A stretch of DNA of 64,000 nucleotides from assembly GCA_038087875.1 (NCBI GenBank), contig CM075994.1, positions 5,644,001 to 5,708,000 of the forward strand, given 5' to 3'. Shown one piece after another: positions 10,401-46,400 of the stretch; the first letter of the stretch is position 1, and every line of letters starts with the position of its first letter. The notes under the pieces were generated by a model, which was not told the origin of the DNA, ran no database searches, and saw nothing but the letters and a program-made list of their open reading frames with translations. The position numbers and the translations under genes are program-made. The stretch comes from Malacoraja senta. Lineage: Eukaryota.

Positions 10401-13400
10401 ATATTTCGATATTCTGTCAGAAATAGCCATTGAGAAAGAAAAACTTCGAGATTGCGGTAAGATGTTTGACGTTCACATTCGAAGATTGCGCTACAATAGT
10501 CTGAACAAATATTTCATAGAGACATTTACTTTTAGTTTTAGAGCTACAGCACGGAAACAGTCGCTTCGGCCCACCGGGTCCGCGCCGACCCGCCATCCCC
10601 GCACATCAACTAACCTCCACCCCCTAGGAACAATTTATTAATTACATTTAACAAGTCAATTAACGTACAAAACTGTGCTTCTTTGTAGTGTGGGAGAAAA
10701 CTGAAGATCTCGGAGAAAACCCACGCATGTCACGAGGAGAACTTATAAACTCCAGACAGCACCCATAGTCGGGATAGAACCCGCGTTCGCTGTAAGGCAG
10801 CAACTCTACCGCTGCGCCGCCGTGACCAGTCATAGAGTCATAGACTGATAATGAGTGGAAACAGGCCCTTCGGCCATCTTGCCCCCACCGGCAAACGTGT
10901 CCCAAATACACTAGTCCCACCTTCGTCTGTTTGGTCCATAACTGCTCCTTAAACGTTAGGATAGTCCCAGCCTCAACTATCTCCTCTGGAATCTTGCTCC
11001 ATACACCAATCACCCTTAGTGTGAAAACGTTACCCCTCAGATTCCTATTACGTCTTTTCCCTTTCACCTTAAACCTATGTCCTCTGGTCCTCGATTCATC
11101 TACTCTGTGAAACAGACTGTGAAAGAAACATATAAAACATTCCTCTCATATGTTTTACAGCTCAATAAGATCACTCCTGTGCTCCAGGGAACAGAGTCCC
11201 AGCCTGTAGATTGATGATGCATGTGAATCAATCACACTTAGCTAGCATCACTAACTCCACCCCATTATAACATTTATACTAACGCCCATTCCCAGCAACG
11301 TTAGTTGAAGCAGCCAGGATGAACTGACAACACCTCGCTCTGTAATGCTGCCAAGTTAAAGTGCTGAATAAAGATGTGTGTAAATCTTATATGCTTTGAA
11401 GTGATTTACATGGCGTCAGAAGGGGTCCTACACACTCCTCTTGTATAACGGTTTTTATTTAATCTTTTTGTGAGTTTTGCTTTACTTTACGATGGCTTCT
11501 TCTTGTCGGAAGCCTGAGCCTCTTGTCTTTGATGCCGATATCAGCGAACGCTGGGCCACGTTTGAAATTGATTACCAGCACTACATGAACATTTTACACC
11601 GAAATGAACCAGATGCTGTTAAGGCCTCTCTCTTGCTCAACCTTGCGGGACCTGGTGCCCTTCGTCGATCCAGAACATTCCGTTATGCTCCGGCTATCCG
11701 TGATGCCCATGACCAGGTAATTACACCGGCGGAGTCTCCCACTGACCCTAATGTTTTGCTGCGTAAACTGGCTCAGATCTGTGACCTGCCTCAAATCACA
11801 TTTTGGACAGGGCAAGGTTTTTCGCTCGTCGTCAACTTCCCGGGGAACGAGTGGACTCATATATTTCTTCTTTAATGTATCTAGCCCAACGTTGTCGATT
11901 TCAGGAAATGCCAGCGGATCAGTTGACTGATCAGTTAACGAGGGATATTTTAGTGAATGGTATCACCGATCAAAAGCTCAGATCAGAGCTCTTGAGACGG
12001 CCACAGTTATCGCTAGATGACGCGGCGCATGCATGCAGAACGGCTGAACTTGTTGATCCTATAGACATTCCGCATGAAAGCAATACCATCAATCTGACGG
12101 GCCTCACTATGCAGCGGACATACACAGATAACAGCCGATCTAAGATCCAAGCTAGCCAGGCAGCTCTCAGCGTTCCTTCACAGAAATGTCCTAACTGCGG
12201 ATATCTACACAACAGGCAATCCACCTGCCCCGCCCTCGGGAAGGCTTGTAAATACTGCAAAAAGCTAAATCACTTTGCCTCAGCCTGTCGGGCTGCTATC
12301 AGGGCCCGAGGAAAGAAAGCGCCCAGTCCCAAGTCTAATCTCAATTTTTTGCAACGAGACAGCAACATACTGACTCCCCATTTCCAGCTCGAAGCCGCCC
12401 CCGAATGTATTTCATTTGACTCGCAAGACGATCCTACTGTTTACATGTTACAGCATGCTGCTGCCAAGAACTCTGATCCTACAGTGACGATATCTGTAAA
12501 CAATGTTGCTTTTGCAGCAAAACTGGATACGGGGGCGAGAGTCAATACAATGTCAATCAACCTTTTTAACAGGATCAGGGCTAACGAGCCACTTTTCAAG
12601 GACGCGTCCACTTTACATGCTTTTGGTGGGGAGGTGCTAGTTCCTCTGGGCAAAGCCAACTTGAAATGTGTACTGAAGAAAACAACTAGGGAATTGACTT
12701 TCCATGTGTTGGACTTTAATTCGGTTACCCTGCTTGGCAATCGTGCCTGTCAGGAACTCGGGCTGATTTCCTTTGATAAAACTGTCCACAAACGGCAAGT
12801 TTCCTTTGATCCACCGAATGACTTCCCTGGTCTTTTCGACAACAACCTAGGCAGGTTGCCTGTGTCCTACAAGATGACTATTGACCCCGATGTGACACCC
12901 GTAGTCCGAAACCCGCACAGATTGACATTTGCCATGACTGACAGGGTTCACTCTATGCTGAAGGACGGTCTCCAAAGGCGTAATTGAAGCAGTCAGTAAC
13001 CCCACCGACTGGGTCTCAACCATGATTGCCACAGACAAGAAGGGAAAGGATGAAATCCGCCTGTGCATTAATCCAAAAGACCTGAACACTGCCATTAAGC
13101 GCCCGCACCATCCCATGAAGACAGTAGAGGATGTTGCAGCAAAGATCGGAACGGCCACCCTATTTTCCGTCCTAGATGCAAAGAACTCATTCTGGCAGAT
13201 ACCGCTGGACAAGAGGTCATCAAACCTTACCACATTTGCCACCCCATTCGGCAGATATAAGTTTCTGAGAATGCCATTCGGGATCAACTCTGCCAGCGAA
13301 GTCTTCCAAAGAACTATGGAACAATTATTCGAGGGTCTGCCTTGTGCCATTATTGTCGATGATATTCTTGTCTATGGAAAGACGCGGCGGAACATGACCA

Positions 13401-43400: not shown

Positions 43401-46400
43401 TTAAGAAAATATTAGACATGTACACGGATAGCTATGGTTTAGAGGGATATGGGCCGAACGCAGACAAGTGGGCAGCGTGTAAGTGGGACATGTCGTTCGG
43501 TGTGGGCAAGTTGGGCCGAAGGGCCTGTTTCCACACTGTATGCACCTATGTATGTGTGTGTGTCAAGATGAAATTCAGTCAGATACCTGACGATTAAAAG
43601 AATACATAATATGCGATTGATCATCAACCATTCTATTCTAATTCACATCATTCGCAAATTATTTTTGACTGAGTACTACAATGGAGAATATAGTCACATT
43701 CATTGTCCCCAGGCACACGATATAAACAAAAACACCAATTTGTATTTATCGCAGATGATCTGCGGACCAAACTGGATGTAGACAAATACAATTAGATTTG
43801 AAAATTATGAACATCAACATTTTTTACAGTGCACATGTTATTTCTAAATCGACAATGCAGACTGCTGCTCCAGTTCAATAGATTGGTTGTACTCACCATT
43901 AGAAGCGCCATGGTTAGATGAGACATATAATCGACTCTGCTTATTTGCGTTAGGATAATTAGAGTAAAAGCGGTCGAATTCAAAAACAATACACGCAAAA
44001 TATAGATTATTGATCTTTTATCCCACTGTTATTTAGGATGAACGTGAACATAACTTTATGAACCAATATAAGTATTTACTGTTTACATCTATAGACAAAA
44101 AACGCGTTTCTTAGCTGAATCGACAGCAAATCAAATTGATTTACAGTGGATACAATGAGCGCTTCAAATTAATAGATCATTTGTACAATTTGGAGATAAG
44201 GCAATGTGCTAGAATCTGTTTTGGGTGACATCCGCCATATGTCTGTAATGAACGCATCTGCCTTTCCAACAAAGCGGAAGTACTAAACATCATGGCGGTA
44301 GTTGTGCTGTGTCATGGGATAGCTTGCATTAATGTATTATCTTAAAACTATGCTGCTAATCTTTAACGTCAATATTCCCTTGCATTTTAAGTGTTCCAAA
44401 GATGTGGCGAATGCTGCTGGAAATAAAATGATCTAAAGCAAAATCAATGGTCTATTCGAAACAGAGAAACAGAAGGAAAAATTCAAAGATTGTGGTAAGA
44501 CGCTTGTCGTTTCGGTTCGAAGATTGTGGAATGGAGTGTGGTGGGGTATCTGAGTGTACACGGTCAACTAGAAATCCCTTGTCTGCCTTAAGCTGCATAT
44601 ATTATATATGTTGATATTCTACAAATAAATAAAATGGTGATAATATCCAAAAATTAGCTGCGATGTTTCTTGTAGTTACTGAATATAAGGCACATAATAA
44701 ATTATGTGAGGGGACTGGTAATTGAAGCAAAAATAATATGCGACTGATCATAATCCATTTTATTCCAAATAATATAATTCGCAAATTGACAATATAGGCA
44801 ATATTGTTACAACGAACCCAATACAGCGAACTCGAAAAATAATCATACATGCTTTTTTTCAACAGATTATTTGGTGACCAGAAAGGACGTAGGTAAATTC
44901 ACTTGCTTGCGAGAAACACGTATAGCAACATTTTAGCTATGCATATATTTGTTTGCCCTTCCAGCTCAACATAAAGTTAAGACCTTACCATTGCGGGCGC
45001 TTTTATCAGATAGGACATTGAAACGACTCCGTTTATTCGCATTTTGTTACCTGGAGCCGCAAGATCCAAAACAAATCAAACAAAAAAAAGATTATTAATC
45101 TGTTCTTAAGATCTGAGTACCTGCAGATAGGATGCTTACAACTGTGATGACATTACACAATTCCAATTACATCTGAAGTGTGTGGGATGTTCTGCACGGA
45201 AGGTGAACGTCTATGGAAAATCGTTGTGGCTTGCTGTATATTCTTTAGTCCAGTTTAGTTTAGACAAACAACGAGGAAACAGGAACGTCGGCTGAACTGG
45301 TCGGCACCGACCAGCGATTCCCGCACAGTAACACCCTCCTACACACGCTAGGGATAATTCACACTTATCCCCAAGCCAATTATCCCAGAAACCTTTACGT
45401 CTTTTGACGGTTTCTCTCGCGCCTTGCAGCTTAGAAATTCTGTTGGCATGCGTGACTGTGAAAAAGAACAAGCATCCATTTTTGCTTGCAAAATATCACG
45501 TAGCTTTTCATTGGCGATCCACAAATGTACATCTTGCAGTAACTTAAAAAAAATATTCCACAGAATTGTAAAAGGCAGATAAATAAAAGCGAACTGGCAA
45601 TCTTGAATCTACGATGTGATATTTCCTCAATTTGCATAATTGTAGGTATTTCAGAATAATTCCCAAGTGTTCTTGATTTTGGTCACTGTTTTAACCAGTC
45701 AGCTTGCATGCATCTGAATGCTTCTATTGGTTTTGGCTTTGCAGAAATTTTATTATTGAAAGATAAAGTGAAACAACTTGGTGAGACAAATAGTATATCA
45801 TAGAACGTTGGACATAGAACATATACAACAGTACAGCATAAGAACATACACTTCCGCGCATAATCCCCCTGTCGTACATGATACGTTGACAACTTCGTAT
45901 CTACCTGCAAATACTCCAAGTCACTCCATTCACTGCATATCCACGTGCCTATTAAAAAGTATATTCAATGCCATTGTGTTATTTGTCTCCACCAACACGC
46001 AGGCACCGCGTACCAGATACATTCCACATTCAGTGTAAAAAACGTGCCGCCCATACCTTCTGTAAACTTCTCTCATCTTAAAGCATAGCTTTTTAGTATT
46101 CGATATTTCCGTCCTGGTAAAAAGGGTTCATAATGTATTTCATATGTATACGTTTCATATATATTTTGTAAAATATATCAGTTCTCCATGCAACCTCAAT
46201 CAGAGTAAATCAGCTTCGAGTGTGCCACCTCTCCCTGTAGCTAATATCCCTTAATCCATGCATCATATCCCACCGCATGGCGGCAGTCCATTTCGGAAAG
46301 TATATCTGATAATGAATTGGCGACCACTATTTCACGAAGACATTTAGTTTATTCGGGCTAGTTGTTAGGAATAATTAAAATCGGGAGGCCAAGCACAACA

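Follow-up and report, generated by a model that had tools for sequence, protein, structure and literature searches.

Why does a cysteine recur about every 21 residues in the core of a predicted coiled coil, and what kind of gene encodes such a ladder? The question is raised by a 64,000-nucleotide stretch of Malacoraja senta DNA (GenBank assembly GCA_038087875.1, contig CM075994.1, positions 5,644,001 to 5,708,000 of the forward strand), referred to here as the window and numbered from its first letter. The original prediction had described an array of 36- and 30-nt exons at 10421..44494, with a cysteine fixed at a heptad core position. We find that on the + strand a pair of exons, one of 36 nt (A) and then one of 27 nt (B), is repeated 13 times in tandem, and that the 21-residue period arose because one Cys-bearing unit was tandemly duplicated; the periodicity reported earlier is real, but this origin had been missed. 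With a probability of roughly 55%, we take the window to be the middle of a large gene whose phase-1 micro-exons encode a long, alpha-helical, Lys/Glu-rich rod; this would serve a BG/butyrophilin-like protein as its cytoplasmic tail or spacer, the protein probably ending in a B30.2 domain beyond the window.

Nucleotide profiles recover exactly 13 homologous A units within 10421-44494 and 13 homologous 27-nt B units that strictly alternate with them across 10421-44892; these B exons had previously gone unmentioned, although the A exons of the original description are real. Every exon of the array is in phase 1, and the unit length of 36 + 27 = 63 nt corresponds to 21 residues, or three heptads, so that the gain, loss or skipping of a unit would leave frame and register unbroken. 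The A-exon consensus is EIExLKEKVKxC. A separate class of 30-nt exons was rejected, since A5, A11 and A13 belong to the 36-nt units but have CCG or TCG in place of the first acceptor, leaving in use a second AG six bases in, which is present in 13/13 A units. Splicing of all exons is deduced from the sequence, using our own approximate splice matrices for the splice-site scan. Among strong short-exon candidates of 15-60 nt, lengths of 27 or 36 nt account for 29/62 on the + strand vs 2/38 on the − strand, and the A-exon pattern matches 12 places in the window vs none in 100 shuffles.

The span given earlier does contain the 13 A units, but at least nine further micro-exons without Cys flank the array, at 1415-3019 and 45745-63083. 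Because the A-like exons on both sides lack the cysteine (the final residue is Asp at 2984, Leu at 45745 and Val at 53977), the Cys ladder is traced to a single Cys-bearing exon pair that was amplified locally within a longer rod. Exons of 27 and 30 nt extend in the 3′ direction to 63083, where the donor is open; the rod extends past both window ends, and both ends of the gene lie outside the 64 kb. Joining the 33 exons in which both the AG and the GT/GC site are intact gives a conceptual product of 339 codons with no stop, while the other two frames contain 38 and 21 stops; the product leaves out B10, B12 and two doubtful candidate exons (8784 and 58906). The stop-free state of the flanking exons is partly circular, because the scan retained stop-free candidates, but that of the 26 core units is not, as these were defined by homology. 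At a rise of 0.1485 nm per residue, the computed lengths are 3.1 nm for the unit, about 40 nm for the array and about 50 nm for the window product.

Hydrophobic residues at unit positions 2, 5, 9, 12 and 16 follow a 3-4-3-4 spacing, which places the cysteine (position 12) at heptad d. Within each unit, a is occupied by Ile2, Val/Leu9 and Leu16, and d by positions 5, 12 and 19. Over the 13 units (39 positions each, counted on the full 36/27-nt frames with dead units included), a is 90% and d 62% hydrophobic, while e is 82% and g 64% charged, in agreement with the coiled coil proposed earlier. The placing of TGC or TGT at d at the ends of the central exons also stands, for 12/13 A exons (TGC in 7, TGT in 5), with A9 as the exception (TTA, Leu). 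A strict 21-residue interval does not hold, however: the 63-nt unit sets the period, but the Cys spacings in the conceptual product are 21, 21, 21, 19, 21, 21, 21, 41, 10, 21 and 10, so that 7/11 equal 21. A Fourier test of the whole product gives a peak at 3.5 residues that is only weak. Splice-site pressure was rejected as the reason for the Cys codon, which lies off the usual donor consensus and which in A9 has changed toward it.

The defects of the array may bear on its register. A3 comes from the lineage without the first acceptor, and a 6-nt duplication has brought it back to 36 nt. Three B units, namely B8 with a shifted acceptor and a Pro, B10 with a dead acceptor and B12 with a dead donor, stand immediately before the defective A9, A11 and A13, respectively. 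The nominal P of this pairing is 0.018, but the cases are not independent, given the common ancestry of A5, A11 and A13. B4, with its GC donor, likewise lies directly before A5. Omitting B4-A5, B8-A9, B10-A11 and B12-A13 leaves nine cysteines spaced exactly 21 residues apart. Together, the restoration of A3 and the paired defects suggest that the three-heptad register matters. A higher-order pattern is also visible: GC donors at 17948, 25329 and 37440 mark a sub-lineage of B2, B4 and B10, B12 has AC, and each of these B exons is followed by an A exon of the first-acceptor-lost lineage, forming a two-unit repeat of 42 residues.

Introns were duplicated together with the exons and are 43-96% alike, with lengths in the array of 0.3-6 kb; in the youngest run, at about 27000-31200, the period is near 800 bp and the introns are 86-96% alike. 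Trees built from the flanking introns have total lengths of 3.2 and 3.1 substitutions per site, and we ran neutral simulations on them that ignore gene conversion and CpG effects. None of the 26 units carries a stop (neutral P = 0.027 for the 13 A exons, of which 4.4 would be expected to carry one, and 0.21 for B). The presence of Cys in at least 12/13 A units has a neutral P of 0.007 (0.006 in a per-column rerun), and Cys is retained even on the longest branches. Its codon has changed at the first base in no case, at the second in one and at the third in four (C/T switches); 7/188 adjacent intron column pairs are as constant as its first two bases. Ile2 is similarly conserved (P = 0.004), but it overlaps the second acceptor. 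A donors are intact in 13/13 units (P = 0.014), and all unit length changes are multiples of 3. Nonsynonymous and synonymous differences (pN/pS) are 0.24/0.28 for A and 0.36/0.30 for B, with introns at 0.39 and 0.34. We read this as maintenance of the frame, the splice donors and a few core positions, while the remainder drifts or diversifies.

Searches for the identity of the gene returned little. The absence of a recognizable Ig, lectin, B30.2 or transmembrane (TM) exon from the window, as stated originally, is borne out: Ig, lectin, RING, PRY and SPRY gave no Pfam match in 86/99 + strand open frames of at least 80 residues (the 13 low-complexity frames were omitted), and 0/40 phase-1 exon candidates of 60-220 nt were TM-like. 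As the window has no Ig, TM or B30.2 exon, the family call rests on architecture and one motif. This is the I-R-K-Y-K ending of the last exon, which is reminiscent of the short linker exon before the PRY/B30.2 exon of butyrophilin and TRIM genes. A PDB search with this exon (63054-63083) and its flanks gave no match, and Pfam was also blank; set against the TRIM21 peptides printed in PMC1526571, as far as that source gives them, the exon shows a loose likeness, and the comparison is a weak one. I-R-K-Y-K as a pre-PRY linker is a lead.

In protein searches, a single-exon profile found none of 7999 candidates at an expectation value (E) ≤ 10, but its control recovered only 1/12 simulated relatives, which makes that result uninformative. 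Two protein-profile matches, at E of 3e-4 and 7e-4, were rejected as chance; one is to a metagenome protein that is Cys-rich and carries no name, the other to a leucine-rich-repeat protein of bacterial origin. With a better profile, 0/124 protein candidates were related in a database that includes Leucoraja proteins; the control for this profile, which covers the scoring step, recovered 6/6 simulated relatives at 90% identity and 3/6 at 80%. Judged by these profile scores, a close annotated ortholog of 73-2000 residues is absent from the searched database, so that the gene may be fast-evolving, unannotated, very long or lineage-restricted. Metagenome DNA pattern scans for the array gave no match, and among the open-access titles and abstract starts listed, none described a gene of this kind from cartilaginous fishes. 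The 339-residue product itself is 34% Lys+Glu and 1.2% Asn, with no N-glycosylation sequon (about 0.4 expected, which makes this weak evidence), a composition that leans weakly to the cytoplasm.

Known systems offer partial parallels. In the available part of PMC5938342, chicken BG tails are described as long heptad rods encoded by a variable number of 21-nt exons (some 18 or 24 nt) with a split first codon, their variation being under selection and their introns subject to read-through; they contain a conserved Cys or clusters of Cys, and palmitoylation has been suggested for these; a soluble BG tail fragment displaces tropomyosin (PMC5938342). The array resembles them, as far as these sources describe them, in its long coiled-coil rod built from many tiny exons with a split first codon, in an exon number that shifts by duplication and loss, in fast amino-acid change, in Cys within the rod and, putatively, in skipping and read-through (PMC5938342, PMC4046983). 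Many heptads are indeed carried on tiny exons here, with 33 intact phase-1 micro-exons, as predicted from their splice sites, making up the 339 codons. By contrast, a single 21-nt candidate occurs among the 62 (BG sizes being 21, 18 and 24 nt), and the introns here measure 0.3-6 kb. As far as these sources describe it, BG shows one conserved Cys and, in some genes, Cys clusters, but no regular ladder, and it lacks B30.2; BG also has a single IgV domain and a TM exon upstream, neither of which was found within the window. Butyrophilins have few heptads, then B30.2, according to the available parts of PMC4046983 and PMC7348870, and the accessible text of PMC12841164 reports butyrophilin genes in two sharks, a stingray and a chimaera, with heptad number differing between butyrophilins. 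BTN, BTNL and ERMAP thus share heptad repeats of variable number with the array and belong to a family present in cartilaginous fishes, but the rod here has at least about 340 residues, or about 48 heptads' worth, and its last window exon retains an open phase-1 donor with no B30.2 exon in the window; any Ig, TM and B30.2 exons would have to lie beyond the window ends. Because neither the exon sizes of BG nor the few heptads of butyrophilins are found, the gene is not filed as either. TRIM and finTRIM proteins have a coiled coil followed by B30.2 and evolve fast in fish, but finTRIM coiled coils lie on 96- and 231/234-bp exons rather than on micro-exons (PMC2657112), and the window has no RING or B-box Pfam match. 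For enterophilin, the available part of PMC13749957 describes a role involving SNX1 and EGFR.

The original prediction had left two choices, a disulfide-stapled extracellular stalk or a BG/butyrophilin-like tail. The cytoplasmic tail fits better and is preferred because of the composition, the BG-like exon behaviour and the last exon recalling a pre-B30.2 linker; this is not decisive, and the family is unproven. A stalk is unlikely, although it would explain why Cys sits at d in 12/13 units and has been retained beyond drift. The rod would then belong to a type II receptor (CD23/DC-SIGN/scavenger-receptor/tetherin-like) or a secreted protein, with an interchain disulfide every 21 residues and a recognition domain at least 40-50 nm from the membrane. 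Cys pairs at d geometrically suit interchain disulfides in two-stranded coiled coils, the period of 21 residues is also that of CD23, and lectin necks too have exons in phase 1, all of which counts in favour of a stalk. The coiled-coil repeats of CD23 and DC-SIGN are likewise exon-encoded, at 21-23 residues each, but CD23 uses one exon per 21-residue neck repeat, whereas the repeat here is split over two micro-exons instead of a single 63-nt exon. Tetherin/BST2 shares an interchain Cys in a coiled coil, but it has a short N-glycosylated Cys-linked ectodomain between its TM and glycosylphosphatidylinositol (GPI) anchors, and the present rod has at least 339 residues and no sequon. The low Asn and high Lys+Glu contents, the same-type flanking exons without Cys, and the lack of a lectin, TM or GPI exon within the 64 kb also speak against a stalk, and BG tails, as described in the available part of PMC5938342, have Cys in cytoplasmic heptad rods.

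It seems quite improbable that the protein is a soluble cytosolic coiled coil of structural or scaffold type (CCDC-, tropomyosin- or enterophilin-like, with no receptor head) that does not belong to the butyrophilin/B30.2 group, its Cys being a small hydrophobic core residue carried along by duplication. Micro-exons that are all in phase 1 are a typical feature of Ig-superfamily tails, and conserved structural rods should have close annotated relatives in Leucoraja and a pN well below pS, neither of which is seen. Enterophilins, which are mammalian, combine a long leucine zipper with B30.2 and have no membrane anchor; they are likened to the present rod on general architecture only, as very long, cytosolic and possibly B30.2-terminated heptad rods, and they are not known to have a Cys period. 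A cytosolic rod does agree with the fact that only rod sequence is visible in the window, with a composition matching cytoskeletal rods, and with the precedent of the tropomyosin-displacing BG fragment in the available part of PMC5938342. The least probable account is that of a decaying or mostly skipped array, formed by duplications in intronic or weakly used exons or in a pseudogene, in which the Cys period would be a functionless fossil of common ancestry. Such decay would account for the loss or shift of splice sites in 6/26 units, the Leu of A9, the Pro of B8 and the out-of-frame candidate at 58906, as well as for B exons that change as fast as introns, introns rich in transposons, and the lack of an annotated relative. 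It sits poorly with 26 stop-free units on intron trees of >3 substitutions per site, with length changes confined to multiples of 3, and with the intact A donors and retained Cys described above.

Several observations also weigh against the cytoplasmic tail that we prefer. No Ig, TM or B30.2 exon lies within the window, the better profile found no relative among its 124 candidates, and the pre-PRY motif is weak, given the blank PDB and Pfam searches and the loose TRIM21 likeness. The unit differs from that of BG, as far as the BG sources go, in that a 36+27-nt pair makes three heptads where a 21-nt BG exon makes one. The third d, at unit position 19, is mostly Lys, and the same six units with lost or shifted splice sites and the frame of the 58906 candidate count here too. 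The P value for Cys rises to about 0.07 once corrected for 11 columns, pN about equal to pS is also compatible with weak constraint, and second codon positions vary more than third positions. Finally, a conserved core Cys is more naturally explained by an oxidising compartment.

If the rod is nonetheless a cytoplasmic tail, an ancestral 36+27-nt pair that by chance had Cys at d may have been amplified 13 times through unequal crossing-over. Rod length would then act as an adjustable spacer, each unit contributing about 3.1 nm and the whole array about 40 nm. Two chains would most likely pair parallel and in register, so that their cysteines face each other in the core; under the reducing conditions of the cytosol, Cys would serve as a small hydrophobic core residue, with a disulfide locking the dimer only upon oxidation, and S-acylation is an alternative use. 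Damaged B-then-A pairs may be skipped as cassettes or may produce local register breaks, and surface positions would be subject to drift or to diversification of the kind known from chicken BG tails. It is also conceivable, if rather unlikely, that the locus belongs to an undescribed cartilaginous-fish receptor or sensor, a giant micro-exon gene whose three-heptad cassettes are tuned by duplication and paired skipping. Its up to 12 core Cys pairs, 3.1 nm apart, would form either a cytosolic redox-switched zipper that controls whether a terminal B30.2 sensor is dimeric, or a permanently stapled stalk of 50 nm or more with an extracellular recognition domain.

Table 1. Exons, repeat units and candidate exons in the window.
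Feature	Coordinates	Strand	Remarks
27-nt phase-1 exon, B-like	1415..1441	+	no Cys; upstream of Cys array; splice scores 8.5/9.3; predicted
36-nt A-like exon	2984..3019	+	last residue Asp, not Cys; 67% identical to A1
Uncertain 27-nt candidate	8784..8810	+	where a B exon is expected; not B-homologous, not heptad-like
A1, 36 nt	10421..10456	+	Cys (TGC)
B1, 27 nt	16148..16174	+	
A2, 36 nt	16485..16520	+	Cys
B2, 27 nt	17922..17948	+	GC donor
A3, 36 nt	19857..19892	+	Cys; first acceptor lost (CCG), 36-nt length regained by 6-nt duplication
B3, 27 nt	20249..20275	+	
A4, 36 nt	24872..24907	+	Cys
B4, 27 nt	25303..25329	+	GC donor
A5, 30 nt	25995..26024	+	Cys; 36-nt acceptor is CCG
B5, 27 nt	27097..27123	+	youngest unit run begins here
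A6, 36 nt	27456..27491	+	Cys
B6, 27 nt	27903..27929	+	
A7, 36 nt	28263..28298	+	Cys
B7, 27 nt	28714..28740	+	
A8, 36 nt	29064..29099	+	Cys; AAG acceptor
B8, 24 nt	29363..29386	+	27-nt acceptor lost; sole Pro of conceptual product
A9, 36 nt	31017..31052	+	Leu (TTA) replaces Cys
B9, 27 nt	35664..35690	+	
A10, 36 nt	36026..36061	+	Cys
B10, 27-nt unit	37414..37440	+	dead acceptor (CGG); GC donor
A11, 30 nt	40575..40604	+	Cys; 36-nt acceptor is CCG
B11, 27 nt	41774..41800	+	
A12, 36 nt	42580..42615	+	Cys
B12, 27-nt unit	43755..43781	+	dead donor (AC)
A13, 30 nt	44465..44494	+	Cys; 36-nt acceptor is TCG
B13, 27 nt	44866..44892	+	
36-nt A-like exon	45745..45780	+	last residue Leu; no Cys
27-nt phase-1 exon	46543..46569	+	
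27-nt phase-1 exon	48507..48533	+	
27-nt phase-1 exon	49699..49725	+	
36-nt A-like exon	53977..54012	+	last residue Val; no Cys; weak DNA match to A units
Candidate exon	58906..58933	+	acceptor 10.2; 8 heptad-like codons; TGA in A6 run; 28 nt to GT
27-nt phase-1 exon	59939..59965	+	
Last exon in window, 30 nt	63054..63083	+	phase 1; open donor; ends I-R-K-Y-K

The candidate at 58906-58933 may be a frameshifted micro-exon, an assembly slip or an alternative last exon, with AATAAA at 59169; as an alternative last exon it would produce a form without the downstream domain. Assembly errors may be present at the changed splice sites and at the A-run of this candidate.

The DNA of the window is rich in remnants of long interspersed nuclear elements (LINE), long terminal repeat (LTR) elements and GIY-YIG elements, and its long open frames are of two kinds, remnants of transposons and repeats of low complexity. 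The A1-B1 intron contains a Gypsy-type LTR retrotransposon remnant (11205-15468) with RNase H and integrase Pfam matches in broken frames and with direct terminal repeats that are 87% alike. A second, shorter copy of this element lies in the A9-B9 intron (31181-33258), where both terminal repeats are oriented opposite to the internal segment and a primer-binding-like sequence stands at each segment end, which looks like an internal inversion. A near-full-length L1/Tx1-like LINE open reading frame 2 (ORF2) is present in pieces in the B3-A4 intron (about 20510-24640; best named relative from Leucoraja erinacea, 80%), a CR1-like reverse-transcriptase fragment in the B8-A9 intron (29470-30770), and inverted GIY-YIG fragments, presumably Penelope-like, in the A9-B9 intron (33320-35430). 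An intronic LINE frame gave 8 matches among 315 candidates, and both of the named ones are from Leucoraja erinacea, the best at 80% identity. Inverted copies of a LINE reverse-transcriptase fragment, 85.5% alike, lie one on each side of the array (5463-6789 and 56025-57352), and long degenerate CT or C-rich low-complexity tracts occupy intronic positions 54301-55541, 57387-58581, 8166-8532 and 46763-47195.

If the rod is indeed the tail of a BG/butyrophilin-like protein, cartilaginous fishes would also have a BG-like tail of many heptads on micro-exons, written in another exon grammar (36+27 vs 21 nt). This would bear on the origin of butyrophilin-family tails at the base of the jawed vertebrates, and the gene would apparently have been missed by current annotation. 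Were the array merely an unexpressed relic, it would be a curiosity. The array is a clean case in which a two-exon, three-heptad unit allows a rod to become longer or shorter while its register is kept. It also provides a naturally occurring coiled coil whose core cysteines form a regular ladder, the redox or acylation state of which is directly testable.

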